Shown: in pieces, positions 17,428 through 51,260 of the stretch
Position numbering within the stretch: position 1 is the stretch's first letter
How the letters are laid out: each line of letters starts with the position of its first letter
DNA from: Candidatus Yanofskybacteria bacterium
Lineage (GTDB): Bacteria > Patescibacteriota > Minisyncoccia > 2-02-FULL-40-12 > IGHO2-01-FULL-4-A
Assembly: GCA_903897805.1 (NCBI GenBank)
Contig: CAIUCV010000017.1
Location: 5,725 to 69,724, forward strand
Direction of reading: 5' to 3'
Length of the DNA stretch: 64,000 bases
Position numbers and translations under genes: made by a program
Notes under the pieces: model-generated
What the model saw: the letters and a program-made list of their open reading frames with translations, nothing else
What the model was told of the DNA's origin: nothing
The model's database searches: none

Positions 17428-18750
17428 TTGAAAACAAGAGGTTATATGAAGGTCACCTTGATCTGTCCGAAACCAACGAACATGAATTTGAACTCGGTCC
17501 CAATTTTCAACTTCCCCAATCAAGCGATCTATTTACTTGCATCAATCACCCCACTGAATTGGGATGTGGAAATTATTGACGAAAATAGAACGCCGATTGA
17601 TTTTGAAACTGAAACAGATCTAGTCGCTCTTACTGCTTTATCTGCTTCAGCTCCAAGGGCATATGAGATTGCGGCCAAATTTAAAATGCGAGGTATTCCA
17701 ATAATCATGGGCGGGATACACGCGACTGTGATACCAGATGAAGCAGCCGAGCATGTTGATTCGGTAGTCATTGGCGAAGCCGACGAAATCTGGCCACAAA
17801 TTTTAAACGATTTTGAACAAGGCCGTTTGCAAAGAGTGTATAAGCCACAGCTACCTCGCAGTTTAGACATCCAAGAGACCAGAGAAATTACAAAAACACA
17901 TAGGGTTAATTTTATTAATTGGCTACCTCTATCTTTAAAAGTAACCTTCATGCAGGTAGGCAGAGGGTGCCCCAATAACTGCGAATTTTGCTCAGTGACA
18001 AAAATTAGTGGTCGCACGCTAAGAACAAAAAGTATCCCTTATATAATTGACAAAATTAAAGAGGAGATAGCGAAGGGCACAGATTTCTTCTTTTTTTACG
18101 ATGACAATATTATTGTTAATAAAAAATTTGCCAAAGAATTATTCCGCGCTATTAAACCACTAAATATAAAATGGATGTCGCAAGCCGATATAAAAATTGC
18201 CGACGAAGACATTTTAGATTTAGCAGTTGAGGCGGGTATGGCCGGAATTCTTCTTGGCCTAGAATCTATTAGCGAAAACACACTTGGCGATGGAGTTGGT
18301 AGGGTGAAGCAACGAATGAGGCCGAATTATGAAAATGCTATAAAAAGATTGCATGATCACAATGTAAATGTAATGGGCGCACTAATATTCGGCTTTGACC
18401 ACGAGAGCGAAGACTCCTATGCTGAAACCGTGGAGTGGGCAATCCAAAATAAATTAGACATCGGACAATTTACCGTCCTTACTCCACTCCCCGGCACGGA
18501 TCTTTCTGAAAGAATGAAAAGGGAAGGCAGGATTACCACGCTTAATTGGACCGATTATGATTGTACGCATGATGTTGTGCAGCGTGAAAAAACTAGAACT
18601 AAAAACTTGGACTTGATAGTGAGAATGGCTTTCAGAAAATTTTATTCATATGGAGCACAGTTAAGGAGATTTAGGCTCCCAAAAAATTTGTTTGATCTAG
18701 CTATCCGACTGACCAATATGCGACTAAGAACCGTTTCCCAATCATTTTAA
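17428..18750 (+). CDS. B12-binding-domain radical SAM protein
   Basis: N-terminal B12-binding-like domain; CPNNCEFC radical SAM cluster motif. Confidence 0.8.
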   Translation: MKTRGYMKVTLICPKPTNMNLNSVPIFNFPNQAIYLLASITPLNWDVEIIDENRTPIDFETETDLVALTALSASAPRAYEIAAKFKMRGIPIIMGGIHATVIPDEAAEHVDSVVIGEADEIWPQILNDFEQGRLQRVYKPQLPRSLDIQETREITKTHRVNFINWLPLSLKVTFMQVGRGCPNNCEFCSVTKISGRTLRTKSIPYIIDKIKEEIAKGTDFFFFYDDNIIVNKKFAKELFRAIKPLNIKWMSQADIKIADEDILDLAVEAGMAGILLGLESISENTLGDGVGRVKQRMRPNYENAIKRLHDHNVNVMGALIFGFDHESEDSYAETVEWAIQNKLDIGQFTVLTPLPGTDLSERMKREGRITTLNWTDYDCTHDVVQREKTRTKNLDLIVRMAFRKFYSYGAQLRRFRLPKNLFDLAIRLTNMRLRTVSQSF

Positions 18751-25732: not shown

Positions 25733-26749
25733 ATGGACAAAATTAAAATAGCAATTAACGGTTTCGGTAGAATTGGGCGGATATTTTTCCGCCAAGCTTT
25801 TGGTAATCCAAAATTGGACTTCGTCGCCATCAACGACCTAGGTTCACCGGAAAATCTTGCCTATTTGCTCAAATATGACAGCGTTTATGGCCCTTACGAA
25901 AAAAGTGTTGAGGTTAAAAACGGCAAATTAATCGTGGACAGGGAACGCGAGATACCCGTGCTTTCCGAAAAAGACCCGGCAAAACTTCCGTGGAAAGACC
26001 TTGGGGTTGATGTTGTTATTGAATCAACCGGCATTTTTGAATCCCGTGACAAAGCAAAGGCGCACCTTGATGCCGGGGCAAAGAGAGTAGTTATCACAGC
26101 ACCGGCGAAGGACGATACAACGCCAACCGCGACTCCGAATGTAGGCGAAGAATTTCTAAAGTCCGATAAAATCACTTCCAACGCTTCCTGCACCACCAAT
26201 GCCATAACTCCAATAATGGCGGTAATGATGAAGACGCCGGGGATTAAAAAAGCGGTACTGAATACGGTTCATGGTTACACGGCAACGCAGGGCTTGGTTG
26301 ACGGCCCTGACCGCAAGAATGATTTCAGACGCGGAAGGGCAGCGGCACAAAACATCGCTCCCTCTTCCACCGGCGCGGCACTGGCGGCAACTAAAGCTGT
26401 GCCGGAACTCGTCGGCAAATTTGACGGTATTGCTTTGCGCATACCGTTAATTTGCGGCTCAATTGCTGATTTCACTTTTATTGCCGCTAAACCTACTTCT
26501 GTTGAAGAAATCAACGATATTTTCAAAAAGGCGGCGGCCCAAGAAGAATGGAAGGGGATTTTGGCAATTACCGAGGAACCGCTTGTTTCAACGGACATTC
26601 TTCGCAATCCCCATGGTTCAATCGTTGACCTAACAATGACAAGAGTAATAGATGGTGACTTAGTAAAGGTCCTCGCTTGGTACGACAATGAGTGGGGATA
26701 CGGAGCAATGCTATTGAAACATGTATTGGCTGTGGCTCAATTACTTTAA
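25733..26749 (+). CDS. gap: Glyceraldehyde-3-phosphate dehydrogenase
   Basis: KIAINGFGRIGR Rossmann start and SCTTN catalytic Cys motif. Confidence 0.92.
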   Translation: MDKIKIAINGFGRIGRIFFRQAFGNPKLDFVAINDLGSPENLAYLLKYDSVYGPYEKSVEVKNGKLIVDREREIPVLSEKDPAKLPWKDLGVDVVIESTGIFESRDKAKAHLDAGAKRVVITAPAKDDTTPTATPNVGEEFLKSDKITSNASCTTNAITPIMAVMMKTPGIKKAVLNTVHGYTATQGLVDGPDRKNDFRRGRAAAQNIAPSSTGAALAATKAVPELVGKFDGIALRIPLICGSIADFTFIAAKPTSVEEINDIFKKAAAQEEWKGILAITEEPLVSTDILRNPHGSIVDLTMTRVIDGDLVKVLAWYDNEWGYGAMLLKHVLAVAQLL

Positions 26750-26754
26750 ACAGA

Positions 26755-27618
26755 ATGTCCGAATATATCCACGACGAAAAAATAAAGGAGCTGGAAGAAA
26801 AGGCCAACCAGATACGTCAATCAATAATTGAAATGCTGGTTGCCGCCGGTTCCGGCCACACAGCCGGTCCTATGGGCATGGCTGATATTTTTACGGCCTT
26901 TTATTTTCATATTTTAAATCACGATCCTAAAAATCCGGAGTGGCCGGAGCGTGATCGGCTTATTCTTTCCAACGGCCACATTTGCCCAGTCCGCTATGCC
27001 GCCATGGCCCACGCGGGATATTTTCCGATTGAGGAATTAAAAACTCTGCGCAAATTCGGCTCACGCCTACAGGGCCATCCCGAAAGAGAAAGATTACCCG
27101 GTTTAGAAACATCCTCCGGCCCGCTCGGTTCCGGTTTGGGCGAGGCCTGCGGCATTGCTTATGCAGCCCGAATGGATAGCAATAAATTCAGAGTTTATTG
27201 CACCATGGGCGACGGGGAGCTGGATTCCGGCAATATTTGGGAGTCAGTAATGTTCGCCGGCAAATACAAACTCAACAACCTCACTGGCATTATTGACCGC
27301 AACAATATCCAAATTGACGGCATGACCGAGAATGTTATGCCTCTTGAGCCGCTGAAGGAAAAATTTGAAGCGTTCAATTGGCATGTGCTTGAAGTTGATG
27401 GCCATAATATTGAACAATTTGTGGACGCTTGCGAGGAAGCTAAGGCAATTTATGAAAAGCCGACAATGATTATAGCCCATACTATTGCCGGTAAAGGTAT
27501 CCCCGAAATTGAGTTTGATTACAAATGGCACGGCAAATCGCCCAAACCCGAAGAAGCCCAAAAATTTTTGGCTGAATTAAGAACTTTGGGCGGAAAAATA
27601 CAAAGCGAGCACCAATAA
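26755..27618 (+). CDS. Transketolase, N-terminal (TPP-binding) subunit
   Basis: GSGHTAGPMGMADI and GDG..DSG.IWE motifs. Probable start MSEYIHD at 26755; the tracked ORF begins at 26692 inside gap. Confidence 0.88.
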   Translation: MSEYIHDEKIKELEEKANQIRQSIIEMLVAAGSGHTAGPMGMADIFTAFYFHILNHDPKNPEWPERDRLILSNGHICPVRYAAMAHAGYFPIEELKTLRKFGSRLQGHPERERLPGLETSSGPLGSGLGEACGIAYAARMDSNKFRVYCTMGDGELDSGNIWESVMFAGKYKLNNLTGIIDRNNIQIDGMTENVMPLEPLKEKFEAFNWHVLEVDGHNIEQFVDACEEAKAIYEKPTMIIAHTIAGKGIPEIEFDYKWHGKSPKPEEAQKFLAELRTLGGKIQSEHQ

Positions 27619-27644
27619 TATAAAGCGTCGGAAATTTTATAATC

Positions 27645-28646
27645 ATGATGAACCCAGAGGCAAAGTTAGCAGAAAATTTATTGGATAAATCAAAGTTGGA
27701 AATGGTGCCGACAAGAATGGGTTTTGGCAAGGGATTGGTTGAGGCAGGGGATAAAGATAAGCGAGTAATGGCTTTATGCTGCGACCTGACCGAATCCACC
27801 CAGGTTCATCTTTTTGCTCAGAAATATCCCGACAGATACATTGAGATCGGCATCGCCGAACAAAATATGGTTTGCGTCGCCGCCGGCTTGGCTCTTCAGG
27901 GCAAGATTCCTTTTGTTACCTCTTACGCAACTTTCGGTCCGGGCCGCAACAATGAGCAGATAAGAACGGCGGTATGCATCAGTAATTTGCCGGTAAAGAT
28001 CGGCGGGATGCATGCCGGCGTTTCTGTCGGTCCGGACGGCATGACTCATCAGGCGCTTGAAGATATCGCTTTAATGAGAGTTCTACCGCGAATGATAGTT
28101 ATTGTACCCTGCGACGCCCTAGAATCGCAAAAGGCAACTTTGGCCGCCGCTTTCAACAACCAGCCGACGTATTTGCGATTCGGCAGGGAGAAAACCCCGG
28201 TTTTTACCGCGGCTGATACGCCTTTTGAAATCGGCAAAGCGCTGATTCTGCGAGATGGAAAAGATGTTGCAATCGTCGGGTGCGGTACATTGCTTTATAA
28301 CTCTCTGCTTGCCGCCGAGGAATTATCAAAAGAAGGAATTGAATGCATGGTCATAAACTCGCACACCGTTAAACCGCTTGACGAAAAAGTTATCATTGAA
28401 GCGGCTCAAAAAACCGGTGCGGTTGTCAGCGTTGAAGAGCACCAGGTTGCCGGGGGCCTCGGTTCGGCAATTGCCGAGTGCTTGGCAAAAAATCATCCCG
28501 TCCCGCAGGAATTCATAGGCGCCCAAGACCGTTTCGGCGAATCCGGTCAGCCCGACGAACTTATTGAAGCTATGGGGATGGGGGTTAACTCCATAAAAGA
28601 AGCGGTGAAGAAAGTTATTTCAAGGAAAGCAGGGATAGACAAATGA
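27645..28646 (+). CDS. Transketolase, C-terminal (pyrimidine-binding) subunit
   Basis: Follows the N-terminal subunit; split-transketolase arrangement. Confidence 0.88.
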   Translation: MMNPEAKLAENLLDKSKLEMVPTRMGFGKGLVEAGDKDKRVMALCCDLTESTQVHLFAQKYPDRYIEIGIAEQNMVCVAAGLALQGKIPFVTSYATFGPGRNNEQIRTAVCISNLPVKIGGMHAGVSVGPDGMTHQALEDIALMRVLPRMIVIVPCDALESQKATLAAAFNNQPTYLRFGREKTPVFTAADTPFEIGKALILRDGKDVAIVGCGTLLYNSLLAAEELSKEGIECMVINSHTVKPLDEKVIIEAAQKTGAVVSVEEHQVAGGLGSAIAECLAKNHPVPQEFIGAQDRFGESGQPDELIEAMGMGVNSIKEAVKKVISRKAGIDK

Positions 28647-28727
28647 GATTTCTTTATATATGATAAAGCCGTTATAAATAGAGAGGCTTGCTTGGGTTTA
28701 GCTTCATCCTATCAGGTACCCCGACCA

Positions 28728-28736
28728 GTGGTATAA
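28728..28736 (+). promoter_or_regulatory. Extended -10 promoter element (TGgTATAAT)
   Basis: Read directly upstream of the 28775 start. Confidence 0.4.
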
Positions 28737-28774
28737 TATACGGTGGCGAATTAAAAATTAAAAAATATAACAAA

Positions 28775-30913
28775 ATGAAAACAAAACTTTTTGTATTGAT
28801 TGGGTTGTTGGCTATTATTCTAATAAGTTTTTTTGTTGGTAATATCCCTGCGCAAGCGACCATTCCGTACACGCCAACCGCGGCTGAACAGGTGGTTTTA
28901 ACCAAGAATGCCTTGATACGCAGCTTTACAAACAGTCTGGCGGATGCAATTCGTAATCTAGGTTACACTCCAATCATAGAAGACCGGGTTATCGCGTCAG
29001 TTCCTATGAATGACATAAGCCTTTCCAGCCGAGTGCCAAATGTGTGGTACATAATAAAAATAGCTCAATTTCCTGATTGGCCGGGAGAAGAAATTAACTA
29101 TAATCAAACCCTAACGGATCCTAATAATTTCGCGGGCTATGCCACTCATATTATAGCCACAGCACCGTCGGAATCTTGGTGCCCGGGAACAAGACCGGAT
29201 AATAGTCAGGTAGTTCACTGTATTGGCCTTGGGTGTGAAATGACAACTGCTCCCGGTGGAATATCTCTTGGCTCTACACCAGTCGTCTCCGGTTCCGGAA
29301 CTCTAGCTCAATTTTTCCAAGCTCTGGAATACCTTCCGGCAGAATATTCAGATATGGTGGCGAAATTTCATACATTGTTTGATGGTTGGACGCCAGGTAT
29401 GCCTTATCCCGGCGCTTCCTCTTATACTCCTCTAACCAGAAGCATGAACGCTGCCGAAATCACCCAATTTTTCAGAGACAATTCTGGCTATGTCAACCCT
29501 TATCTCATTTTCACCTCCGGCGGAGTTTTTGGAGACCCTGCCAATTGGACATATCAACAGCATTATTGGTATGACCAAGCTTATCAATCAAATACCGGCC
29601 AACAATGCCCGGGCAGTTATTGCTCGGGAGTAGCCGAAGCGCACAGAGACCCTTTTAAAGACAATCTTGCTCAATGCACGGTCAGCAGTCCTTATAATAG
29701 AGTGGACAGCAAAGGCAATGTCTACAGTATTTTTGACGCTGGTACCAGTTATTCTGTTAGTTCGGGTGGGAAGACGACAAATATTCAAATAATTCCTCCA
29801 TATATGAGTCAATATGGATTATTGCAAAAACTGATGGACAGAGCTTATAACCCTCGAAATTTGAACGTAAGCGGCATAATGGAAACTGATGTTGGTAAAA
29901 TAGATTATCAAAAATTAAGGGCGTATGTTCTTAAAGCTATTGATGCTTATATTGCTCCTAAACTGCCGGTTTTTGTGGCGGCTCCTACTCCTCCTTATGA
30001 TATAGCTACGCGAGATGCTTACACTGCTTATATAAAAGCGGCGACCAAAGTGGTAGTGGAAGCGGTCCAGCAAGTACAGCTCACCATGGGAAGGGCTTCA
30101 GATGAAAAAGCGGCAGCTCTTGCGTTTATAAACCAATGGAATAAAGATCCGTTACCTGTATTAGGAAGTTCTACTTCTACTCCTACTTCTACTCCTACTT
30201 CTACTCCTACTTCTACTCCGATTCCGACACCTACTCCTACTTGTTGGTGGTGGATGCCAAATTGCTCGCCAACTCCAACCCCGATTCCGACTCCGACACC
30301 GACACCGACTTGTTGGTGGTGGGAAACATGTCAGCCGACTCCTACTCCCATTATTACCTTGACCCCAACGCCGACGTCCTCGTCAACACCGACTCCCTCT
30401 CCAACGCCTACCATTTCACCAATACCCACTAATCCCACTAGACTCTACATGCTGTCAGAAATAAACGATGGCGACCTCATAAGAGGGCAGGGGGATATCG
30501 CTGTCTGGATAGTAAAAATCGTGGGAGAAAAAAGATATAAAAGATGGCTCTTCGGCCCCCAGATATTCAAAGCCTATGGACACCTTGGTTTCAACAAGGT
30601 TAAAAACGTCAGCAAGGAAACCTTAAATAAATTTGACACCTCCAACCTGATTCGTAAATTTGACGATACTAAGGTTTATGAGCTCACGGATTTCGTACCT
30701 GGCAAAAGTGCTGCAAGGAGATGGATACAAACCTCAGAAATTTTCCTCCAGAGAGGCTTCGATTTTGACTCAGTTTACATAATAAACGCGGGGGAATTTA
30801 ATTTATACACCGAGGGTTCGCCACTGCCAATAACCAAAACAGATGAAACTAAAAACAGTCTCCCGCTAACTGCCAATCTCTCCGAGGCAATGTTGAGATT
30901 CTTGGGCTGGTAG
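28775..30913 (+). CDS. Large secreted protein with a Pro/Thr-rich linker carrying two CWWW-x2-C motifs
   Basis: Signal peptide [29 protein letters not shown] Cys-containing N-terminal domain, then (STPT)n and PTPT repeats with [12 protein letters not shown] and [12 protein letters not shown], then a C-terminal ~150-aa domain. The tracked ORF starts at 28688. Confidence 0.7.
30170..30222 (+). repeat. In-frame 12-nt tandem repeat (tctactcctact, ~4 units) encoding (STPT)n
   Basis: Read directly. Confidence 0.8.
30226..30345 (+). repeat. Tandem duplication (~70-nt unit) encoding P(I/T)PTPT-CWWW-xxC-PTPT
   Basis: Two copies of ttgttggtggtgg-containing units flanked by ccgac/ccaac repeats. Confidence 0.6.
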
Positions 30914-30940
30914 GGCGTGTTTGAAAAAGTTGCGATTATA

Positions 30941-30972
30941 ACAAAACACTCCGCTAGCGGAGTGTTTTGTTC
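30941..30972. terminator. Bidirectional hairpin terminator (aacactccgc / gcggagtgtt)
   Basis: Lies between convergent genes. Confidence 0.55.
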
Positions 30973-30981
30973 TTGCAAGAT

Positions 30982-31524
30982 CTATACAAACTCCCTCATC
31001 CTTGCCAAGTCCTCTCTGAACATTGGCTCCCAATTAATATTCCGCAAAATTGCAGCCGGATGGTAGGTAATTAAAATCTTGTGGCTGTTTTTTTCTATAA
31101 CCTTGCCGCGATTTTCGGCCATAGTACCCCCAATGCCAAGACCGGCCATCGCAATCCGTCCGAGTATAACAATCAACTTCGGGTCAACAACTTCTATTTC
31201 TTTTTCTATCGCCGGCCTGAATTTTTCTATCTCCTGCGGCATAGGTGTAAGAGTGCCGCCTACGGCGTCGCGCGGCCTATATTTTACGATGTTGGTAATA
31301 TAGAAATCGCTTCTTTGCCAGCCAAGTATTTCCAATGTCGCATTAAGCAGTTTACCGGCCCGGCCTACAAACGGCTTACCCTGTTTTTCTTCGTCAGCGC
31401 CCGGTGCCTCGCCGATAATCATAACCGGCGCGTCCGGCGAGCCGTCATTAAACACCAAGGTCTTTCCCGGATAGGCCTCTTTTATCGCTTTGAAGATATA
31501 TTCAAGCTTTTGATTTTTGTCCAC
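30982..31524 (-). CDS. Uracil-DNA glycosylase, family 4
   Basis: [23 protein letters not shown] motif. Confidence 0.88.
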
Positions 31525-31563
31525 TTCTCTGTTATCCTATCAATAAAATGGCGGTTTTTAAAG

Positions 31564-31638
31564 GGGCGTGTAGTTCAATGGTAGAACGTCGATCTGATAA
31601 GTCGAAGGTTCTAGGTCCGATTCCTAGCACGCCCACCA
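31564..31638 (+). tRNA. tRNA-Ile (anticodon GAU), CCA encoded
   Basis: Manual cloverleaf: acceptor GGGCGTG/CACGCCC, D-arm GTTC-AATGGTA-GAAC, anticodon loop CTGATAA, T-arm CTAGG-TCCGATT-CCTAG, then ACCA. Confidence 0.85.
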
Positions 31639-31686
31639 AAACCTATTTGTTTTGTCGGCAACAAAAAGTGAGTTATAATTAAATCA

Positions 31687-32421
31687 ATGAACAACGATCA
31701 TCTCAACGTCCCGGCATCAAAACTGCCGTTGGTGGAAAAGCTCCCGCCCGAGAAGGATTGGAGACAATCTTTCCATTGGCGGATATTCAGAATAATGGCC
31801 GAGCTTGTTGACGGCTGGCAATTTCTTGCCGACCTCAAAAAAACGGTTACATTTTTCGGTTCGGCAAGAACCAAAGAGGGCGACAAGTGGTATGAGGAAG
31901 CGAGACAGCTTGGCGAAATGCTGGCCAATGACGGCTTTAGCATCATCACCGGCGGCGGGCCGGGCATAATGGAAGCCGCAAATCGCGGAGCGCATGAGGC
32001 CAAAGAGAAGTCAAACAATCCGGAAGTGGTCGGCAGTTCAATCGGGCTTAACATAAAACTTCATTTTGAGCAAAGAATCAATGCTTTTGTGGACAAGGCA
32101 ATTGCTTTCCACTACTTTTTCGTCAGGAAAGTGATGCTCTCCTATTACGCCCAAGCTTATGTTTACTTCCCCGGCGGATTTGGCACGCTTGATGAAGCCT
32201 TTGAATTGTCCACCTTGGTCCAGGTCAAAAAAGTTCCTAATATTCCCATTATCCTGGTTGGCAAAGATTATTGGGAACCATTGGCAAAATGGATTAAAGA
32301 ATGTGTCTACGAAAAATACGAAGCAATAGATAAAGACGATATGGATATTTACAAAATCGTGGACAGCGCCGAAGAGGCCTATGAGATCATCAAAAAGGCA
32401 CCGGAAAGAAAAGAGTTTTAG
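31687..32421 (+). CDS. LOG-family (TIGR00730, lysine-decarboxylase-like) protein
   Basis: Motifs GGGPGIMEA and PGG.GTLDE. Confidence 0.8.
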   Translation: MNNDHLNVPASKLPLVEKLPPEKDWRQSFHWRIFRIMAELVDGWQFLADLKKTVTFFGSARTKEGDKWYEEARQLGEMLANDGFSIITGGGPGIMEAANRGAHEAKEKSNNPEVVGSSIGLNIKLHFEQRINAFVDKAIAFHYFFVRKVMLSYYAQAYVYFPGGFGTLDEAFELSTLVQVKKVPNIPIILVGKDYWEPLAKWIKECVYEKYEAIDKDDMDIYKIVDSAEEAYEIIKKAPERKEF

Positions 32422-38256: not shown

Positions 38257-39240
38257 ATGTCGCAAAAACTCAAAATAATTCTCGGGGTTCTGATTCTGGC
38301 TGCCGCTTTTTTGGTCATTCGGGTGGGTTCTTCGTTTTACAGAAGCGCGAAAACCGCCGCTCTAATTTCGCAAATAGTAATTACGCCTGCGCCGGAAGAA
38401 AACCTTCTGACCAAAGACAGCGACAATGACGGAATCCCGGATTATTTAGAAGCCTACTATCGAACAGACCCGTTTAATCCCGACACCGATGGCGATGGCT
38501 ATCTTGACGGCGAAGAAATTGTCGCAGGGACCGATCCGCTTAAAAAAGACAGTCCTCCGGTTATCGCCGGCACTCAAAGCTCCAACGTAACCGATACGAT
38601 GATGAATAGGCTAGTTGCCGGCGTTTACTCCGGAGATCTTAATCCAGGAACGGGGGATAAGACAAAATATGATACCGGCGTGAATTCCCTAACCTTTGCG
38701 ACCATAGATGATGCCCTCAAGGCCCTGACGCCGAAACTGGTAGAAGGCACTATAGTAACGGACGATGATACCAAGCAAGCTAAAGAAAAATATTTGCAAA
38801 ACGTCTCCCATTTGCTTGAGGGCCCCTTTTTAGATTCATTTATGCAACAGCCGCAGACGATGAATAAGGCCGTTAACTTGTGGGCCAGAGGTGATTACGA
38901 CGGCGCCTCTAAGATCTTTGAGGATTTATCCCTGAAATTTACTACTGCCTATACCGAGCTTCTGACCCTGCCGGTTCCTTCCAGCTGGGTTGATTTTCAT
39001 AAAAATCTTCTCGCGACATTCCAAAAAATATCCGTTAACTATTCGGTGCTGTCCAGAACCGGGGAAGATCCCGTGCTGGCGATGACCGCCCTTAGTGACT
39101 TCTCCAACAATATGCTTGATATTGATTCGTCTTTATTGCAAGAGTTAAAACTATTGATACAAAAAGATAATTTGGAAATACCTAAAACGCCTCTTTTTGA
39201 AACATTGGACATCCTAAACAATAAATCATCAATTCAATGA
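38257..39240 (+). CDS. Membrane-anchored protein with thrombospondin-type-3-like Ca-binding repeats
   Basis: N-terminal TM; DSDNDGIPDYLE and DPFNPDTDGDGYLDGEE repeats. Confidence 0.6.
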   Translation: MSQKLKIILGVLILAAAFLVIRVGSSFYRSAKTAALISQIVITPAPEENLLTKDSDNDGIPDYLEAYYRTDPFNPDTDGDGYLDGEEIVAGTDPLKKDSPPVIAGTQSSNVTDTMMNRLVAGVYSGDLNPGTGDKTKYDTGVNSLTFATIDDALKALTPKLVEGTIVTDDDTKQAKEKYLQNVSHLLEGPFLDSFMQQPQTMNKAVNLWARGDYDGASKIFEDLSLKFTTAYTELLTLPVPSSWVDFHKNLLATFQKISVNYSVLSRTGEDPVLAMTALSDFSNNMLDIDSSLLQELKLLIQKDNLEIPKTPLFETLDILNNKSSIQ

Positions 39241-40295
39241 TAAACCCCGGTTTCAAGCTAATCGTTGCCGTAATCGCAATTAGCACCTTGCTTTTATTTC
39301 CCTTCGCTGTCGCCCGGGCGGCGGGCTCTATTATGTATATCTTAAAGGAATTCGGCTTGGATGTTGCCGCCAGAGTTATCACCAGAATGCTCGAAACAAA
39401 ATTAAGCGATGGCATGGTGAAAAAAATGCTGAAGCTCGGGCGGGGTGGAGGACCGGCTTTTATTCAGGATTGGAGGACCTTTTTGTCAACCGCTCAATAT
39501 AGAGGAGAAGATATTACAAGAGGGGTAATTGCCGATGCTGTTGACACAACCATTTGTCCATATATGGGGCCGTCTATTGCTAGTATATTCAACGCCCAAC
39601 TCCCCATCCCCGACCCGTATAAATATCGTGTAGACTCTCTCCAGTACTATAAATTGCGCAACCGATGTTCCTTGCCTTCCGGTCTTAACGTTGACGCATT
39701 CAGAAACGATTTTAACCAAGGCGGCTGGGAGGCGTGGGGAGAATTGATCCAGCCGCAGAATAATTTTTACGGGGTTTACGGAGATAGCATAAGCGAGTTG
39801 ACGAGCCAAAGAACATTTGAACAAGGCATTGATACGAGCGAGGCGATCTCGGGCAATGGCAATACTTCAGCAAGAGCACCTTGCGTGGGAGAAGGCATGA
39901 ATAAGCAATGTACGGTCATGGGACTAATAATCACTCCCGGAACCGTCTTTAGCCAAAACGAGGCGGCCACGATTAACAAGGAGATGGATTGGCTGATAAG
40001 CGCCGACGAGCTAAGCGAAGTTGTTGCGAATCTCACGACAAGCGTTCTCAGCCGTCTTGAAGATTATGCGGCCGGAGCCGTTCTCTCCGGACCAGCGGCA
40101 GGAAATAATTACGATGCCAGCGGAGCCTTGGGGCAAGCCAAGCAAGATTGCGTTAACTCTTGCATTGTCGCTAAGTGCCCGGCGGCTTTGGCTGCCTGTA
40201 ATATAGACACGAGCAATCGTCCCTGCGCTCCGGCTGATCCGGATCCCCGTGATGCCTGCGTATCAAGTTGCCAGCAGACCCAAGGATGCCAATAA
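39237..40295 (+). CDS. Secreted hypothetical protein with a Cys-rich C-terminus
   Basis: Signal peptide; C-terminal CVNSCIVAKCPAALAACN...CAPADPDPRDACVSSCQQTQGCQ. Confidence 0.55.
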   Translation: MINPGFKLIVAVIAISTLLLFPFAVARAAGSIMYILKEFGLDVAARVITRMLETKLSDGMVKKMLKLGRGGGPAFIQDWRTFLSTAQYRGEDITRGVIADAVDTTICPYMGPSIASIFNAQLPIPDPYKYRVDSLQYYKLRNRCSLPSGLNVDAFRNDFNQGGWEAWGELIQPQNNFYGVYGDSISELTSQRTFEQGIDTSEAISGNGNTSARAPCVGEGMNKQCTVMGLIITPGTVFSQNEAATINKEMDWLISADELSEVVANLTTSVLSRLEDYAAGAVLSGPAAGNNYDASGALGQAKQDCVNSCIVAKCPAALAACNIDTSNRPCAPADPDPRDACVSSCQQTQGCQ

Positions 40296-40317
40296 TGACA
40301 TTTAGCGATAAATAAGG

Positions 40318-42636
40318 ATGGCAAAAAAGAAATTATGTATCGCGGTAATATCTACAGTAATAATTTTACTGGCGGTTTTAGTTCCTCAACATCAGGCCAG
40401 GGCTGATGCCGTGACGGACATAGCCCAGCAAGCTAGCAGGTTAATTTTGGCAGGGGTTGGCAAAGCAGTCGCGTGGGCCGCTCAAGGGTTTGATGCATTC
40501 GTCCAGTACCAAACTGATAACGCTGTTTTTGGTGTAAAAGTAGTTGATGATAGTTGGGCAACAATCAGAGACTTCGTAAATCTGTTTTTCATTCTGATAC
40601 TTATAATTATGGCCTTCGGCACGATTTTTGACATCAAAGAATATACCTGGAGAGATATGCTCGTGCCATTTCTGATTGTCGCTTTGCTTATCAACTTCAG
40701 TCTTGTAATAGGCCAGTATATTATAACCGTCGCAAACGGTCTGGCCGGGATTTTTTTAAGGACAATGACTCAGGGTGGTGGCAGTATTTCTGAAATATTT
40801 GCTCAAGGATTTTCCCAGGTTGGTATTGTCTCCGCGACACCGCAAGCGGGCATACTTAAGCAGATGGCCACTGCGGTGTGGGATTCAACACCAATCGGTA
40901 TAGTGTTAAATGCAGCCAGCCCTCCAACCAGCGTCTTGCTAACTGCAATTTTTGGCATCATCTTTTTGGTGATCACGTTTCTTGCTTTCTTGTCGGCTTT
41001 TATTTTTTCATTAGCAAGGATTTTTGTTTTATGGTTCCTGCTGATTATTTCTCCTATCGCCTGGCTCGGCTATGCACTTCCGAACCTTAGGAAGCAAACT
41101 TGGAGTGAGTGGTGGAAACATTTCTTCTGCTGGTGCTTTTTCTTACCTTATTATTTATTCTTTTTAATGTTTGCTGTGATTTTTATAAAGAATCAAGCCG
41201 TTTTTAAGCCCGTCCCTGGTTCTGCCTCCATCACAATTGGTTCTATGACGCTTAATAATCTCCTTATTTATGGTATCAGCTTGATTTTTCTTATCGGCGG
41301 CCTGTTTGTAGCAAGAAAAATGGCTTGTGCAACCGGTTCCGGCGTGAAAACTGTTTTCGGCAAAATAGATGCGGGTGTTAAGAAATACATGCCGGGGGCG
41401 GCTTATGTAAGAGGCGCATGGGGGGGAGTGAAGGCAAGGGGTGAGGAGATCCAAGAAAAAGGAGTTCTAGGTATTGGCGGAGCCCAGCGCACTCGTATAG
41501 CTGAAGCTGGGATAAAAGGTTGGGTAGCTGGAATACCTGGCTTAGGCCGAGTACCTGGAGCGAGAGAAGAGACTAATAGAGTAAGGTTAGAGGAAATCAT
41601 TAAGAAAGAGGTTCCTAAATTGGCGTTGGAATTACAAAGACTTTCGGCGGACGAGCGGAAGGAGTTCCTCCAAAAAGCACAAGACAGGAAGGGTGTTGCG
41701 GGCGAAGCGGCTTTGCTTGAATATGCCAAGCAGGGCTATTCCACTAAGGATGACTACGTAAAAGCAATAGACAAATTTGGCGGTGAAAATACTGCTCTTG
41801 GCAGGCAGTATTTGAAAAATCTTGTAGAAGCTAACCTTAGAGATTTATTTAGTAGCTCTACCGAAGAGCTTGATATTGCCAGACCAACCGATCCCACTCT
41901 CTCCAACCTTAGGCGTGAACTCTGGAAAGATTTAGCAAAACGAAATCAAATTTCAAGTAAAGAAGATTATAAAATTGCCAAGGATTTGTTCTCCTCGACA
42001 CCAACCGAACTTAAATCATTTCTTGATTCCATCAAGCCAGAATATATTGTCGGCACTAAGGAAACTAGACAAGACGCTATTAGAAATAGAACTCTCGGCG
42101 ATACTGACCTCGAAAGAAAGCTGGTAGAGTTCATGAAGGACAAGAAAGAGATTAACGATGTGCGACTTAGACAAGAGGCATTGGCTATCGTGGACGGAAA
42201 GGATACTATCGAGGGTCGCAACATAATAAATGAGATTAATAAGTTCAATCCGGCAATAAACATTGAGGCCGACTTGCGAGAAGAAAGAGGCACTCCAGTC
42301 GATCAATCCCTCTCTACTGAGGACAATGACAGAATCGTCGGAGAAATCGCTGATAAAATTGCTGAAAAAGAATTCGCAGACTTGCGGAAAATGTCAAGTA
42401 AATTCTGGGAAGATAAAAGAACTCAGCGGGCAGTACGTCAAACTTTTAATGGAGGGGAGCTCACTCAATTGCTAGAGAACGCGCCTAAAGAAATGAGAAG
42501 GGCATTAAAAAATCTGCCTGGGGGTGGGTCTACTACAGCAGGGGACGGCGAAACAAGAAGACCGGCTGGCTTTGTCCCTTCGGGCTCAACGGTAACTCCT
42601 GAGGGACGGGTAATCCCACCGGAAGATAGATCTTAG
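40318..42636 (+). CDS. VirB6/TrbL-like polytopic membrane protein with a large C-terminal hydrophilic coiled-coil domain
   Basis: Signal sequence, then ~6-7 TM helices across residues ~90-330, then a ~430-aa charged domain; sits next to the VirB3/VirB4 genes. Confidence 0.55.
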   Translation: MAKKKLCIAVISTVIILLAVLVPQHQARADAVTDIAQQASRLILAGVGKAVAWAAQGFDAFVQYQTDNAVFGVKVVDDSWATIRDFVNLFFILILIIMAFGTIFDIKEYTWRDMLVPFLIVALLINFSLVIGQYIITVANGLAGIFLRTMTQGGGSISEIFAQGFSQVGIVSATPQAGILKQMATAVWDSTPIGIVLNAASPPTSVLLTAIFGIIFLVITFLAFLSAFIFSLARIFVLWFLLIISPIAWLGYALPNLRKQTWSEWWKHFFCWCFFLPYYLFFLMFAVIFIKNQAVFKPVPGSASITIGSMTLNNLLIYGISLIFLIGGLFVARKMACATGSGVKTVFGKIDAGVKKYMPGAAYVRGAWGGVKARGEEIQEKGVLGIGGAQRTRIAEAGIKGWVAGIPGLGRVPGAREETNRVRLEEIIKKEVPKLALELQRLSADERKEFLQKAQDRKGVAGEAALLEYAKQGYSTKDDYVKAIDKFGGENTALGRQYLKNLVEANLRDLFSSSTEELDIARPTDPTLSNLRRELWKDLAKRNQISSKEDYKIAKDLFSSTPTELKSFLDSIKPEYIVGTKETRQDAIRNRTLGDTDLERKLVEFMKDKKEINDVRLRQEALAIVDGKDTIEGRNIINEINKFNPAINIEADLREERGTPVDQSLSTEDNDRIVGEIADKIAEKEFADLRKMSSKFWEDKRTQRAVRQTFNGGELTQLLENAPKEMRRALKNLPGGGSTTAGDGETRRPAGFVPSGSTVTPEGRVIPPEDRS

Positions 42637-42642
42637 TATCAA

Positions 42643-43152
42643 ATGGCCCAAGACAACCAAAAATATTTTCAGTTCAGCCCATTTTTCATTGATTCAACAT
42701 TAATGTCGGACTTAGATTGGGACAAACTCCAAGACAAAATCGATAAGTTACCTATCGTTCTTGGCAATATTCTAACCAGTTATAAAACCTCGGAATTTAT
42801 AGAAATGTTAGCCCAAAAATATGTTCAGTTAGGCGTGCAATGGTCAGATATCGCCAGAATTGTCCGTGATGTGGTTTTGGCCGATATCTATATCGGTGAT
42901 ATGCCGGCGCAGATTTCATCAAAGCTCGGGGTTGACCAAAATACGGCTCTTGAAATAGCGAGAGCTATCGTCTCCCAGCTTTTCGCGCCGGTTATTGAGG
43001 ATATTAAAAAGTTGCAATTGCAAAAATTCGGAAAATTGCCCGGCTCAAGTGCGCCCCAACAATCTCCGCAAGCAAGACCACCGCAACATATACCAGGAGA
43101 AGAATTGCCGGAAACAGGGGGGAATATAATTGATTTGAGGAATCAAAAATAA
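42643..43152 (+). CDS. Hypothetical protein (169 aa)
   Basis: ORF only. Confidence 0.4.
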   Translation: MAQDNQKYFQFSPFFIDSTLMSDLDWDKLQDKIDKLPIVLGNILTSYKTSEFIEMLAQKYVQLGVQWSDIARIVRDVVLADIYIGDMPAQISSKLGVDQNTALEIARAIVSQLFAPVIEDIKKLQLQKFGKLPGSSAPQQSPQARPPQHIPGEELPETGGNIIDLRNQK

Positions 43153-43210
43153 AAAAGAACCTTTCGGTTCTTAATGGCTCTGAGGCCTAAAAATGGTGCC
43201 CCGGGGGAAT

Positions 43211-44284
43211 TCAAGAAGTTGGATGCAAGAAATCGTCTGCCAGAATACTGTAGCAATGCGAGAGCTCGGAACAATAGTTTACGTAATCAAAGTAGTTGCT
43301 CTCCCAGTTGATAAACATATTATCCGTGGCTAAAAGAGCGTAATAAGCAGCATTCCTCGTATCGCTGGCCACGGTAATAAGATCGTCGGGCATCCCAGAA
43401 AGGCCAGCAATTAAAGTGTCGGCATCGCGGCATACCCTATCAAAGCTGGCTCTTGCCTGATAACGAAAAATCGTTTCGGCAGTAGACTTGTCTCCCTTGT
43501 TAAAGTAAGACATTGCGTTATTATAGCAATCCATGCCTTTGCTATAGAGTTGGTGTAGGTTCTCAACTTTAATCAACATATTAATCCCACGAGCTAGCTG
43601 ATTTGCCAGATTCTTTTCTTCGCCTGACAGCGGATAATAGGCAGAAATAACATTAAAATCCTCCAGTTCTAAAATCTTAACTAAAAAGACTGGGAGTTTT
43701 AGATACTCGGGTACTAAATACGTGAGGCAAATGCGAATACGACTTCGCCCATCGGGAGTTATCCCATCAAAACCTGAACTGGAATCGTGATCAAAATTTA
43801 CATAGGTTTGCCAGAGTAGATTCACACTTTCAGTCTTGGCTATGATCTTTTTAAGCTCGGCCATCCCGGATACGCGTCGAGTTTTTTCAGAATAGATAAG
43901 CGGCTCAACCGGTGGGCGGTCTTCTTCCTCATCTTCTTCCTCATAATCTTCTCCATCGTCGTGATCTTCAACAGCGTCCAGGAGTTCCCGGTGTCGGCGC
44001 TCTTCGTTTTCCTCGCGTTCTCTACTGCTTTCAACCTCAACAACTCTTTCTGTAACTCCTGCCGTGCTAGATCTTTCTTCTGTTTTTACTACCGATGCTT
44101 TTGCCCCCGCGGCGATTCTTTCGGCCAAATCCTTGTTTTTAAGATAGTCTGCATATCCCTGCCTTTGCCCTTCTACGTATGTCCCTTCGGCACATATTAA
44201 CGAAAGACCGTCAGGTCTTGATCCCGAAAAGCCGACTTCGTAGCCTGCTAAGCGGCTTCTTTCTTCACCTTTCTTGTCAGCCAT
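43211..44284 (-). CDS. Hypothetical protein with an acidic D/E-rich tract, encoded divergently inside the T4SS-like cluster
   Basis: ORF; low-complexity stretch DHDDGEDYEEEDEEED. Confidence 0.45.
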   Translation of the reverse strand: MADKKGEERSRLAGYEVGFSGSRPDGLSLICAEGTYVEGQRQGYADYLKNKDLAERIAAGAKASVVKTEERSSTAGVTERVVEVESSREREENEERRHRELLDAVEDHDDGEDYEEEDEEEDRPPVEPLIYSEKTRRVSGMAELKKIIAKTESVNLLWQTYVNFDHDSSSGFDGITPDGRSRIRICLTYLVPEYLKLPVFLVKILELEDFNVISAYYPLSGEEKNLANQLARGINMLIKVENLHQLYSKGMDCYNNAMSYFNKGDKSTAETIFRYQARASFDRVCRDADTLIAGLSGMPDDLITVASDTRNAAYYALLATDNMFINWESNYFDYVNYCSELSHCYSILADDFLHPTS

Positions 44285-44407
44285 ATATTCCTTCTGTTGT
44301 TAAATAGCTGAATATGCCTATATTATACGCACTCCTAGGGTTAGTGTCAAGGGGGTTGGGGTGGTGTGCGGAGTGTTGAGATTGTGTGTGCTATTTGGAT
44401 GTTGTTT

Positions 44408-44416
44408 TGGTATAAT
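44408..44416 (+). promoter_or_regulatory. Extended -10 element (TGgTATAAT) upstream of the VirB3/VirB4 genes
   Basis: Read directly; preceded by an unusual GT-rich tract (44340-44400). Confidence 0.4.
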
Positions 44417-44445
44417 TTGTATATAGTCAAGTTGCGAAGCAAGCT

Positions 44446-44778
44446 ATGCGTTTTCAAGTTCCACAATTTATTGAGACGGAGAGCAAAATCGTCGGGCCGT
44501 TTACGCTCAAACAGTTTTTGTATTTGGCCGCCGGGGCGGTAATAATTTTCATTCTGCAATATGTTCTTAGTTTCACATATTTAATAATCGTTGGTACGCC
44601 AATTGCCGCCCTTGCCGCCGCTTTAGCTTTTTATAAAGTTGACGGCGTCCCGTTCCCACAATACCTATTGATGGCCCTATCGTTTCTAACCGGAACAAAG
44701 AAGTATGTTTTCAGCAAAGACCAAGGACAACAATACTTGCCGGAAAATAAATCCCAAGCATCAAATTCTAAGCCTTAA
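44446..44778 (+). CDS. VirB3/PrgI-like small membrane protein
   Basis: 110 aa; I.GPFTLKQF followed by two TM segments, as in Gram-positive VirB3-like proteins; immediately precedes VirB4. Confidence 0.6.
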   Translation: MRFQVPQFIETESKIVGPFTLKQFLYLAAGAVIIFILQYVLSFTYLIIVGTPIAALAAALAFYKVDGVPFPQYLLMALSFLTGTKKYVFSKDQGQQYLPENKSQASNSKP

Positions 44779-44788
44779 ACAAATTTCA

Positions 44789-45436
44789 ATGGCCAAACTG
44801 ACAAGGGAGCAAAAAGCGGTAAAGACAACTAGGGATTTTGTCCAAATCGCTGAAATTCGCGATACCGTTTTGGCGTTAAAAGACGGCTCGTTGAGATCGG
44901 TTGTTGAAATAGGTTCAATAAATTTTGAGCTGAAATCGGCAGACGAACAGGTTGCAATAGTCCAAGGGTTTCAAAACTTCATTAACTCTCTCGATTTCCC
45001 GCTTCAGATAGTGGTAAACTCACGCAAGTTGGACATTGAACCTTATTTAAAATCCCTTGAGGGGCTGACCGAAAGTTTAAAAAACGAATTGCTGAAAATC
45101 CAAGCCGTTGAATATACCAGATTCATTAAGGGCCTAACTGAATTAACCAACATAATGGCCAAGAAATTTTTTATTGTGGTTCCTTTTTACGCGATAGAGG
45201 CGGTGTCTCCGACCAAAGCCGGCTTTTTTGGCGCGATAAAAAGCGCGGTTATTCCGTCCAAGTTCGTAAAAACACTAACCGAAGAACAATTGGGAAATTA
45301 CAAAGTGCAGATAGGCCAAAGGATAGGAGTGATTGCTGAAGGGCTTAGCGGGCTGGGGCTTCAAACAAAAACTCTGGCGGGAGACGAACTTATGAATTTG
45401 TTTTATTCCTATTATAATCCCGGGGAACACCTATAA
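44789..45436 (+). CDS. VirB4/TraE-family ATPase, N-terminal fragment (split gene)
   Basis: F.QIAEIRD..L.L.DGS...VEIGSINFELKS..EQ matches the N-terminal region of Gram-positive VirB4 homologues. Ends at TAA 45434-45436, 2 nt before the next ORF, which is in another frame. The tracked ORF starts at 44705. Confidence 0.6.
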   Translation: MAKLTREQKAVKTTRDFVQIAEIRDTVLALKDGSLRSVVEIGSINFELKSADEQVAIVQGFQNFINSLDFPLQIVVNSRKLDIEPYLKSLEGLTESLKNELLKIQAVEYTRFIKGLTELTNIMAKKFFIVVPFYAIEAVSPTKAGFFGAIKSAVIPSKFVKTLTEEQLGNYKVQIGQRIGVIAEGLSGLGLQTKTLAGDELMNLFYSYYNPGEHL

Positions 45437-45438
45437 AT

Positions 45439-47220
45439 ATGGCGCTATTCGGCAGAAAACAATCAATCATCCCGACGGATATCCAGCCTAAAACGCTTGA
45501 TGATTTGCTAGCACCTTCGGCAATCAGCATTTCGTCAAACTACCTCCAGATAGGCAGCCAGTTTGCCCGCACGCTTTTTGTCGTAACTTACCCGAGATAT
45601 TTGAACACCAATTGGTTTTCGCCGGTCATAAATATGGACAGACCGATAGACGTTTCCATCTTCGTCCATCCGCAAGATACCGGGAACATTCTAAAACAGC
45701 TGAGGGACCGCCTCGGCAGATTAGAAGCTCAAGCGATGGAAGAGCAGGCAGCAGGCAAGGTAAGAGATCCGATACTGGAAACGGCGATTAATGACATCGA
45801 AATGTTGCGCGACAAGCTTCAACAGGGGACGGACAGGTTTTTTGAGCTGGGATTGTATATAACGATTTACGGTGATTCCACAAAAGAACTTGACGAAACG
45901 GAAAACAAAATAAAAGCGATCCTTGATGCTCAGCTTATTTATTCCAAGCAGGCGACTTTCAGGATGAAAGAGGGATTTTTCTCAACGATGCCCCTGAACG
46001 ATGACCAGCTTGCCGTCCACACTTCTTTAAATACCGAGCCCATTTCCTCGCTCTTCCCGTTTGTTTCTTACGACCTTACGGCTGATAAAGGGATACTTTA
46101 CGGAATAAACACCCACAATAACTCTCTGGTTTTGTTTGACAGATTTGCTTTGGAGAACGGCAATATGGTTGTCTTCGGCAAGGCCGGCGGGGGAAAAAGT
46201 TACGCCGTAAAACTGGAAATTTTAAGAAGCTTGATGTTCAGCACTCAGGTTTTTGTCATTGACCCAGAAAATGAATACAAGTTCCTGTCGGATACCGTGG
46301 GCGGGATTTCAATCAAGATATCTATCGCTTCGGACCAGCATATTAATCCTTTTGACTTGCCTGCGCCTCTGCCCGATGAGAGTCCGGCAGACGTTCTGCG
46401 CTCTCATGTATTGAATTTGCTCGGCTTGTTCAAAATTATGCTTGGCGCTCTCACTCCCGAAGAAGAAGCGATTCTTGATGAAGCCGTAAACCAGACATAT
46501 GCCCTAAAAGACATAACCTCGGCCACAACCGACCTTAAAAGCGCTACGCCGCCCTTAATGAGCGATTTGCAAAGCGTCTTGGAAGGAATGACGGGGACAG
46601 AATCATTAGCCATCAGAATCAAAAAATATACCGAGGGAAGTTTTGCCGGTTTCCTAAACAACCCGACCAATGTTCAGCTGGATAATCAGCTTATAACATT
46701 CAGTATCCGCGATATGGAAGAGGAATTAAGACCGATAGCAATGTATCTGGTCTTGAATTTCATCTGGACCCAGGTTAGGACCGAGCTCAAGAAGCGCATA
46801 TTGGTGGTTGACGAGGCCTGGGTGTTGATGAAGTATGAAGCTGGTGCGGCGTTTTTGTTCAATATGGCCAAACGTTGCCGCAAATACTTCTTGGGTCTTA
46901 CCACGATTTCCCAAGACATTCCCGACTTTATGTCTTCGCCGTACGGAAAGCCGATCGTTACCAACTCGTCGCTGCAGTTGCTTTTAAAGCAATCCACGGC
47001 GTCAATTGAGCTGGTAAAAAGCACCTTTAATCTCACGGACGCTGAAAAGTTCTTCCTCATGGAATCGCGTGTCGGGCATGGTCTGTTCTTCGCTGGCGCT
47101 AATCACGTCGCATTACGGGTCGTTGCCTCTTACGCGGAAGACCAGATAATAACCTCCGACCCCAGACAGATACTTGAGATAGAACAGGCCAAAAAGGAAT
47201 TGGCTCAACAAGCAACTTAA
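45439..47220 (+). CDS. VirB4/TraE-family ATPase, central and C-terminal fragment
   Basis: Walker A GKAGGGKSY, Walker B ILVVDEAW, GLTTISQD motif. Confidence 0.8.
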   Translation: MALFGRKQSIIPTDIQPKTLDDLLAPSAISISSNYLQIGSQFARTLFVVTYPRYLNTNWFSPVINMDRPIDVSIFVHPQDTGNILKQLRDRLGRLEAQAMEEQAAGKVRDPILETAINDIEMLRDKLQQGTDRFFELGLYITIYGDSTKELDETENKIKAILDAQLIYSKQATFRMKEGFFSTMPLNDDQLAVHTSLNTEPISSLFPFVSYDLTADKGILYGINTHNNSLVLFDRFALENGNMVVFGKAGGGKSYAVKLEILRSLMFSTQVFVIDPENEYKFLSDTVGGISIKISIASDQHINPFDLPAPLPDESPADVLRSHVLNLLGLFKIMLGALTPEEEAILDEAVNQTYALKDITSATTDLKSATPPLMSDLQSVLEGMTGTESLAIRIKKYTEGSFAGFLNNPTNVQLDNQLITFSIRDMEEELRPIAMYLVLNFIWTQVRTELKKRILVVDEAWVLMKYEAGAAFLFNMAKRCRKYFLGLTTISQDIPDFMSSPYGKPIVTNSSLQLLLKQSTASIELVKSTFNLTDAEKFFLMESRVGHGLFFAGANHVALRVVASYAEDQIITSDPRQILEIEQAKKELAQQAT

Positions 47221-47223
47221 ACT

Positions 47224-47673
47224 TTGGTTTGGCAAGCAATGGAATCAACCTCTGAACAACAATACCAATACGCTCTTGAAGAAGATCGGGCGCGCCAGCG
47301 CCTAGAAGCGGAGAGCTTGGCACAACAGCAGGGGTCCTCGCAAGACAAAATGGGATGGGGGATTTTCATTGTTGCCCTCATTTTAAGTTTAATAGCCGAC
47401 GCGGTTGAACTTATCACCGCAGGAACTCTTGGTTGGTTTGTGGGCCTGTTTATTGATTTGATATTGCTCGTTATGCTAGGATTTTCCAAGGCGGGAAGAA
47501 AACAGTTTAAAAAATGGATATGGGGACCCTTGATAGAAACAGTGCCGATTCTCTCCGCGGTTCCTCTCTTCCGTGTCGCTTTTCTGATTTGGGCATTTGC
47601 CTCCTCCCGCAGTAAAACACTTCGGGCAGTTTCTAAGGTAGCATCGGCTGGTTTGTCTAAGAAAGCGGTTTGA
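47224..47673 (+). CDS. Small membrane protein (149 aa)
   Basis: Two to three predicted TM segments, directly after VirB4. Confidence 0.45.
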   Translation: MVWQAMESTSEQQYQYALEEDRARQRLEAESLAQQQGSSQDKMGWGIFIVALILSLIADAVELITAGTLGWFVGLFIDLILLVMLGFSKAGRKQFKKWIWGPLIETVPILSAVPLFRVAFLIWAFASSRSKTLRAVSKVASAGLSKKAV

Positions 47674-47686
47674 TTCTTCGGCTCGT

Positions 47687-51246: not shown

Positions 51247-51260
51247 AAGAGTTGCTGTTT

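Follow-up and report, generated by a model that had tools for sequence, protein, structure and literature searches.

Cys-bracketed Trp loops in the Pro/Thr stalk of a predicted secreted protein from a Patescibacteria bacterium

Variable-head surface proteins of Gram-positive bacteria carry a conserved wall-anchoring module (LysM, SLH, CWB2, choline-binding, or GW), and secreted multidomain bacterial enzymes, such as the cellulases of Cellulomonas fimi, contain Pro/Thr (PT) linkers known as PT boxes. The subject of this study is a gene in a 64,000-nucleotide stretch of contig CAIUCV010000017.1, hereafter called the window. The gene encodes a predicted Sec-secreted modular cell-surface protein of 712 residues from a Patescibacteria (Candidate Phyla Radiation) bacterium related to Candidatus Yanofskybacteria. 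The original prediction, made from the DNA alone, described a signal peptide, a Cys-containing N-terminal domain, a PT linker with repeats, and a C-terminal domain; translation and repeat searches bore out this architecture. Two short loops, each with consecutive Trp residues between two Cys, interrupt the linker. Sequence comparisons show that a small clade retains these loops, which form part of a tail cassette shared by proteins with different heads.

The likeness to the Gram-positive variable-head proteins lies in the signal peptide, the variable head, the flexible linker, and the conserved module built from repeats, with heads exchanged and the module kept. In contrast to the Gram-positive wall modules, the C-terminal domain described here matches none of them by sequence (Pfam, NCBIfam), and we infer its binding to the wall. 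Like a PT box, the stalk is an extended P/T spacer encoded by short tandem DNA repeats, which would separate a functional from a binding domain; to our knowledge, however, no PT box has been described in which a Trp loop between Cys residues breaks the spacer. A variable head, a PT stalk, and a repeat anchor make up an overall design that is already known from surface proteins of Gram-positive bacteria and from enzymes with PT boxes.

For the loops themselves, the closest counterparts are of two kinds. The fungal CBM1 module has about 36 residues and four Cys, and the mucin CysD domain, which interrupts Pro/Thr/Ser regions, has about 110 residues and ten Cys. Both are small Cys-stabilized units that present aromatic residues in or beside P/T/S-rich, often glycosylated spacers, whereas the loops described here have 7–8 residues, two Cys, and no Pfam-detectable similarity to these modules. 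Trp-rich membrane-active peptides (tritrpticin with its WWW, puroindoline with a Trp-rich loop between Cys, and lactoferricin) are cationic and use consecutive Trp, sometimes bounded by a disulfide, for interfacial membrane binding. In contrast, our loops have no basic residues (their interiors draw on M, E, P, S, N, T, and G), and the PT stalk around them is long, neutral, and part of a large protein. For a 7–8-residue Cys-Trp-Trp loop in a PT stalk, no described counterpart was found in the literature; the publications retrieved on "CWWW" were limited to physics papers and engineered peptides.

The stalk and the conservation of its loops

The stalk comprises residues 464–555 (92 residues; 30164 to 30439, + strand, as for all features of this gene) and by composition count consists of 75% Pro, Thr, and Ser. 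It starts with a tandem repeat whose 12-nt unit is in frame and is translated as (STPT)n (30171 to 30241; 5.9 copies, 84% match); the repeat is followed by loop 1 (30242 to 30265), C490-W-W-W-M-P-N-C497 and then S-PTPTP, and loop 2 (30311 to 30331), C513-W-W-W-E-T-C519 and then Q-PTPTP. The two loops lie in duplicated linker units offset by 69 nt and 82% identical over 51 nt, so that the predicted duplication was confirmed. The predicted unit, CWWW-xx-C, fits loop 2 (C-WWW-ET-C) and fails in loop 1 (C-WWW-MPN-C), because the Cys spacing differs by one residue. Besides the two loops, WWW was found nowhere in the six reading frames of the window, and the DNA patterns of both loops gave two matches in the window versus none in 100 shuffled sequences. 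A second small secreted protein of 225 residues (60912 to 61589, − strand), which combines an extended stretch rich in P, T, S, and Q with a C-terminal domain that contains Cys, is without loops of the C-x-W-W type.

Because a low-complexity region could arise by an assembly error or a frameshift, we compared the window with other assemblies. Four independent assemblies from other runs (L146 and L147, from ENA, and L151 and L153) matched it at 100%. The k-mer (Logan) assemblies L151 and L153 covered the upstream genes and the N-terminal domain as far as 30200, where these short-read contigs ended inside a perfect 48-nt stretch of the 12-nt repeat, as might be expected of an artefact. L146, however, spanned 30148 to 30991 and bridged the unique 3′ end of the N-terminal domain, the entire tandem repeat with unchanged copy number, both loops, and the C-terminal domain, and L147 covered both loops and the C-terminal domain (30231 to 30921), each at 100% identity. 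Loops were also found in frame in three further contigs from other samples. Independent assemblies thus agree on the fusion, on the number of repeat copies, and on both loops, and we conclude that the linker is not an artefact, a possibility to which we give practically no weight. The assemblies also bear on the proposal that slippage makes the linker hypervariable: copy number was identical in independent assemblies of the strain, and linker length did differ between relatives.

The linker can also be read in an alternative frame (+1 relative to the gene; 30241 to 30432), which gives a 63-residue product containing DSDSDTDTD. In L146 and L147, both of them short contigs, the gene callers chose this frame and split the gene; such gene-calling artefacts of the PT repeat hide the loops from protein databases. 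Relatives of the loops were found by reading the DNA upstream of truncated gene calls for the C-terminal domain.

The positional orthologue P0023 (542 residues, encoded on contig L181), which shares a 90% cluster with the C-terminal-domain fragment P0008, has C-QWW-MSN-C at the position of loop 1 and C-WWW-MSN-C at that of loop 2. A paralogue on contig L157 (the contig of P0009), with a C-terminal domain 87% identical to ours and a different head, has the sequence C-YWW-EEG-C-QPTPTP, similar to loop 2, 47 residues ahead of that domain. Contig L182 opens at its edge with TGC-QPTPTP followed by the C-terminal domain, and thus carries the 3′ half of a loop. These sequences define the consensus C-x-W-W-[M/E]-x(1-2)-C-[S/Q]-P-T-P-T-P, in which WW is invariant and is preceded by W, Y, or Q. 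The triplet WWW, taken as the core motif in the original prediction, was therefore replaced by C-x-W-W with two or three residues after the triplet. Nor are the loops confined to the window protein: they are conserved in P0023 and L157 and belong to the C-terminal cassette. Every loop lies in the stalk ahead of the same C-terminal domain, and across the 24 proteins and 18 loci searched, the expression C.WW.{2,4}C had no match outside these linker sites.

The presence of two loops raises the alternative that they act as a structural staple or in oligomerization. In this explanation, the four Cys and six Trp would pair between loops (C1–C4 and C2–C3, resembling a Trp zipper) or between molecules, and would compact or cross-link the stalk. 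The two loops are kept as a pair, 15–19 residues apart, in both the window protein and its orthologue, and clustering would allow the Trp to escape exposure to solvent. The L157 protein, however, has a single loop in the 150 residues before the C-terminal domain, and intrachain loop pairing is therefore not obligatory. We consider a staple unlikely.

Codon alignments provided a further comparison. The third positions of the PT codons varied freely, some Cys codons had switched from TGT to TGC or the reverse, and the loop interiors contained changes including an indel; the first Cys, W-W, the second Cys, and [S/Q]-PTPTP were retained in all. These results bear on a second alternative, in which the loops are functionless by-products: a small inversion or template switch in the PT repeats would have made the Cys and Trp codons, which were then duplicated and tolerated in a disordered linker. 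TGT and TGG are indeed reverse complements of the Thr and Pro codons ACA and CCA, the motif lies within repetitive DNA prone to duplication, several homologous linkers (P0002 and P0010) are without it, and it is restricted to one lineage. Such an origin does not readily explain the retention of the same residues in five loops despite so much divergence around them; moreover, a search of the linker for inverted repeats found none, and its RNA folding was unremarkable (z = −0.96). We regard a by-product as quite improbable.

Broader searches for the loop were of limited use. A scan of genome contigs for TPT-C-WWW (ACNCCNACNTGYTGGTGGTGG) matched at least 120 loci, and the matches listed were all out-of-frame chance occurrences in high-GC genomes; this pattern was too loose for GC-rich DNA, and the scan was uninformative. 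The metagenome-contig pattern, TGT-(TGG)3-x2-3-C-x-PTP, gave 23 matches, all out of frame, on contigs with a GC content of 0.55–0.72. It was too strict, because loops with TAC or CAG at position 1 or TGC as the first Cys codon escaped it. In viral contigs, all 21 matches to WW-x2-3-C-Q-PTP were out-of-frame chance occurrences. A word-index search of 5.8 billion protein clusters with the two loops (without the PT sequences) and the C-terminal domain yielded 39 candidates, none with a loop (E ≤ 10). The view that the loops are highly unusual thus held up, with no Pfam, NCBIfam, or PHROG coverage and no other in-frame copy in a PT linker among the scan matches listed; the database scans did not place the motif in any widespread, known domain family.

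Exchange of heads upstream of the loops

Contig L181 is syntenic with the window and carries, in order, a GAPDH fragment, the N and C parts of transketolase, the surface-protein gene, a convergent UDG gene, and a LOG-family gene. BLASTN aligned the left flanks (L181 1 to 2753 with window 25895 to 28651) at 95.2% identity and the right flanks (L181 3751 to 5686 with window 30228 to 32188) at 87.7%, and found nothing alignable between L181 2754 to 3750 and window 28652 to 30227. This break in homology between conserved flanks indicates that the head was replaced. The swapped cassette (28652 to 30227), recognized by its lack of DNA similarity to L181, comprises the promoter region, the signal peptide, the head domain, and the (STPT)n repeat. 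On the right it ends within PT-coding DNA, 14 nt short of loop 1. At one chromosomal position, two close relatives thus have a common stalk-plus-C-terminal-domain cassette with heads that are unrelated.

The same C-terminal domain (74–100% identity) was found behind several distinct heads: the P0002-like N-terminal domain of P0002 and P0023, whose N-termini are 45% identical; the head of P0010, which has a Kre9/KNH-like Ig domain; and the head of the L157 protein. By eye, P0002 contains a HEIGH string of the HExxH type. The Joint Genome Institute sample that yielded L181 also holds the window type of head, fused there to LysM on a separate contig. Low-complexity PT-coding DNA would be an obvious substrate for the recombination that such exchanges require.

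Contig L148, from a Candidatus Yanofskybacteria metagenome-assembled genome (GCA_016185545.1), is collinear with the window at 47.7–56 kb, with DNA identity of 65–74%. In L148 (5865 to 9850) the gene for the 942-residue P0002 and a gene for a 213-residue protein lie between polysaccharide-synthase and jag/yidC genes; the counterparts of these flanking genes adjoin in the window (51246 to 51761) with nothing between them. Genes for proteins with this C-terminal domain thus sit at different loci in related genomes.

The C-terminal domain, the head, and the gene

The conserved C-terminal domain (residues 556–712, 157 residues; 30440 to 30910) was delimited by alignment and modelling as two tandem subdomains of about 58 residues and a conserved tail. 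Relatives of the domain, at 35–100% identity, were P0002, P0003, and P0008–P0015. A model from a ten-sequence alignment was confident, with a predicted local distance difference test (pLDDT) score of 83 and the core above 90. Both subdomains, at about residues 566–624 (30470 to 30646) and 625–679 (30647 to 30811), were drawn from the secondary structure of the model and the alignment; each has a modelled beta-beta-beta-alpha-beta-alpha order, and their sequences align with each other (E = 0.004).

With this model, Foldseek ranked EccB5 and EccB1 highest, at non-significant scores below the level of confident homology and a sequence identity of 8–12%. Among viral models, two uncharacterized actinophage proteins matched (E = 5e-6 and 7e-4); a tblastn search of 50,697 phage records found no match. 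The structure paper on EccB1 likened its repeats to those of the wall-binding protein PlyCB (PMC4769845). The modelled C-terminal domain weakly resembles the modules of EccB1 and EccB5 (type VII secretion), PlyCB, and LysIME-EF1 in being built from small beta/alpha repeat units, which in those systems are located in the envelope. It differs from them in the low identity and sub-confident scores and in the lack of both a type VII secretion context and a phage match. Membership in the EccB or PlyCB families was not found at the sequence level: there was no Pfam match, the neighbouring genes were of housekeeping type, and no type VII secretion or phage-lysin context was seen.

The placement of the domain varied. 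It was C-terminal after a PT linker in P0002, P0009, P0010, and P0023, directly after the signal peptide in P0003, P0014, and P0015, and in tandem in P0013. Such independence of position and partner is typical of anchoring or binding modules, and with the weak fold matches it makes envelope binding seem the most likely role of the domain. In L158 (the contig of P0012) the linker before the domain contains another Cys-bounded insert, ...IC-PTPTPTP...PV-C-PTGRIWSGHFDTTQNPPIPI-C-NPV..., so that PT stalks before this domain seem prone to hosting various Cys-bracketed inserts.

The extreme C-terminus (residues 683–712; 30821 to 30910) is near-invariant in P0002, P0009, P0011, P0023, and P0024 and contains the string LPLTA; AlphaFold2 (AF2) modelled it as a short terminal helix following a disordered segment. 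Anchoring by sortase (LPXTG type) was considered and rejected: by eye, the LPLTA-like string is followed by 12 amphipathic residues, with neither a transmembrane segment nor a basic tail.

The N-terminal head (residues 28–463; 28856 to 30163) was rarely encountered. An exhaustive phmmer/HMMER search of 1.84 billion representative proteins gave just four matches: P0005, a fragment of the protein itself; P0001, at 62% identity; and the fragments P0006 and P0007, which covered only the helical C-terminal third. The protein has ten Cys, four in the loops (490/497 and 513/519) and six in the head (136, 149, 154, 278, 283, and 301), and all six of the latter are kept in P0001. In these relatives the head is followed by four somatomedin-B-like Cys knots (P0001), LysM (P0006), or Cys-rich segments (P0007). 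The fusion to LysM offers at most a hint, at the sequence level, that the head might act at the cell wall. The Cys spacing of CBM1, hevein-like, or somatomedin-B modules gave no Pfam match in the window protein; Somatomedin_B was matched only in the homologue P0001. Searches of the PDB by phmmer and by profile gave a sole match, 4zxm (E = 0.29 and 2.8), which was rejected as spurious low-complexity similarity rich in Cys, Gly, and Ser, and the four sequences available for AF2 gave a head model too poor to use (pLDDT 38.6).

L144 and L145, ENA contigs that come from other samples, match window positions 28158 to 29767 with two single-nucleotide differences (29759 and 29761). They diverge at 29767, within the head domain, into an unrelated 25-nt tail and a stop codon, which give the truncated product P0005. 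The break point coincides with an insertion in the window protein relative to P0001, and the divergence is due to strain variation or else to a chimeric end of the contigs.

Profile hidden Markov model searches with the whole protein, the head, or the C-terminal domain found no Pfam or NCBIfam family at E ≤ 1. PHROG profiles gave just two matches, both of unknown function (E = 0.11), and member-by-member family scans of the two domain alignments gave nothing consistent.

The coding sequence extends from 28775 to 30913, including the stop codon at 30911 to 30913. Its boundaries were set from the stop-free translation, the ENA gene call P0005, which also chose the ATG at 28775, and the N-termini of homologues. 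Public gene calls use a TTG at 28688, 87 nt upstream, which gives a 741-residue version. Because this start would place 29 extra residues before a typical MKTK... signal peptide, it is probably a mis-annotation. The predicted Sec signal peptide (residues 1–27; 28775 to 28855) was read from the sequence; it has the n-h-c pattern of MKTK, a hydrophobic stretch, and NIPAQA-T, with an AQA cleavage motif of the AXA type. Equivalent MKK... N-termini occur in P0002, P0010, and P0023.

Adjacent to the gene are genes for transketolase, UDG, a LOG-family protein, and DUF763. This neighbourhood bears on a third alternative for the loops, post-translational cross-linking, of Cys to Trp or otherwise, in the manner of ribosomally synthesized and post-translationally modified peptides (RiPPs) or of cofactor biogenesis. 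Each loop places Cys next to Trp, and an open reading frame (ORF) for a B12-binding radical S-adenosylmethionine (SAM) protein occurs at 17428 to 18750. That gene, however, is 10 kb away amid housekeeping genes, the immediate neighbours are those just listed, and the host of the loops is a 712-residue secreted protein rather than a short precursor peptide. We find such cross-linking very improbable, and the radical-SAM RiPP idea was rejected because no linked gene was found. The enzyme for C-mannosylation is eukaryotic; C-mannosylation of the eukaryote type (WxxW/C) was also rejected, because its motif fits loop 2 only.

Proposed role and significance

The following scheme is offered. The predicted Sec-secreted protein consists of a rare head of disulfide type, an extended Pro/Thr stalk, and a two-repeat C-terminal domain. 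The loop-bearing part of the stalk and the C-terminal domain form a tail cassette common to several surface proteins of the lineage, to which recombination in PT-coding DNA would join differing heads. The C-terminal repeats would anchor the protein to the cell envelope. Each Cys pair may close a disulfide ring of 5–6 residues, from which two or three Trp side chains would project and form a small aromatic knob on the otherwise hydrophilic stalk. Through contacts with glycan strands, peptidoglycan, or the membrane interface, such knobs could strengthen the anchor or fix its position. Conservation of the six Cys of the head, together with the Cys-knot modules of relatives, makes disulfides in the loops plausible. 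A PBP1A-like ORF at 56178 to 58346 (read by eye) indicates that the organism has a wall.

That the C-terminal repeats hold the envelope and that disulfide-closed aromatic loops reinforce the attachment is a reading we hold tentatively, as somewhat short of probable. The role in membrane, cell-wall, or carbohydrate binding suggested in the original prediction agrees with the conservation of the loops amid synonymous divergence and with a C-terminal domain model that weakly resembles wall modules; the binding itself would be the conjectural part.

Several points weigh against a role for the loops in attachment. P0002 and P0010, with C-terminal domains 81–83% identical to ours, have PT linkers without a Cys loop, which indicates that the loops are dispensable for the domain and are an optional, lineage-specific elaboration. 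Complete loops are known only as five copies in three proteins of one narrow lineage, and these are in part not independent. Exposed Trp could equally serve self-association.

A bolder extension of the attachment proposal is that C-x-W-W-x(3-4)-C loops are an undescribed, minimal disulfide-stabilized module for aromatic binding or stapling. It would belong to a swappable-head system by which episymbiotic Patescibacteria keep various heads, whether enzymes or adhesins, on the envelope of their own cell or of the host, with the PT-coding repeats as recombination joints. In this general form the idea is doubtful.

Two further regions of the window deserve mention. From 38257 to 48778 there is a series of ORFs that match no Pfam family (352, 772, 169, 357, 243, and 363 residues). 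A bacterial TSP3-repeat protein (38257 to 39240) flanks the series, which includes a VirB4/TraG-like ATPase (45439 to 47220); a counterpart of this ATPase lies at the start of the L148 locus. The series could encode a surface apparatus for type IV secretion or one that resembles a pilus. At 4426 to 5859 (+ strand) a 477-residue ORF has its best match to the ThyX (Thy1) profile at residues 334–458, preceded by a long N-terminal part.

Patescibacteria live attached to other cells, by means that are largely unexplained. Relatives of the Yanofskybacteria have been observed on Methanothrix, and the secreted proteins that they express include some with domains for wall binding (PMC10936435). If the loop does not bind, it would be a lineage-specific curiosity; if it binds glycan or membrane, it would be among the smallest natural binding modules and an easily engineered tag. 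The locus may also illustrate how PT-linker DNA serves as a joint for domain shuffling. A conserved tail cassette with exchangeable heads, if true, would provide a concrete entry to the surface biology of the Patescibacteria.

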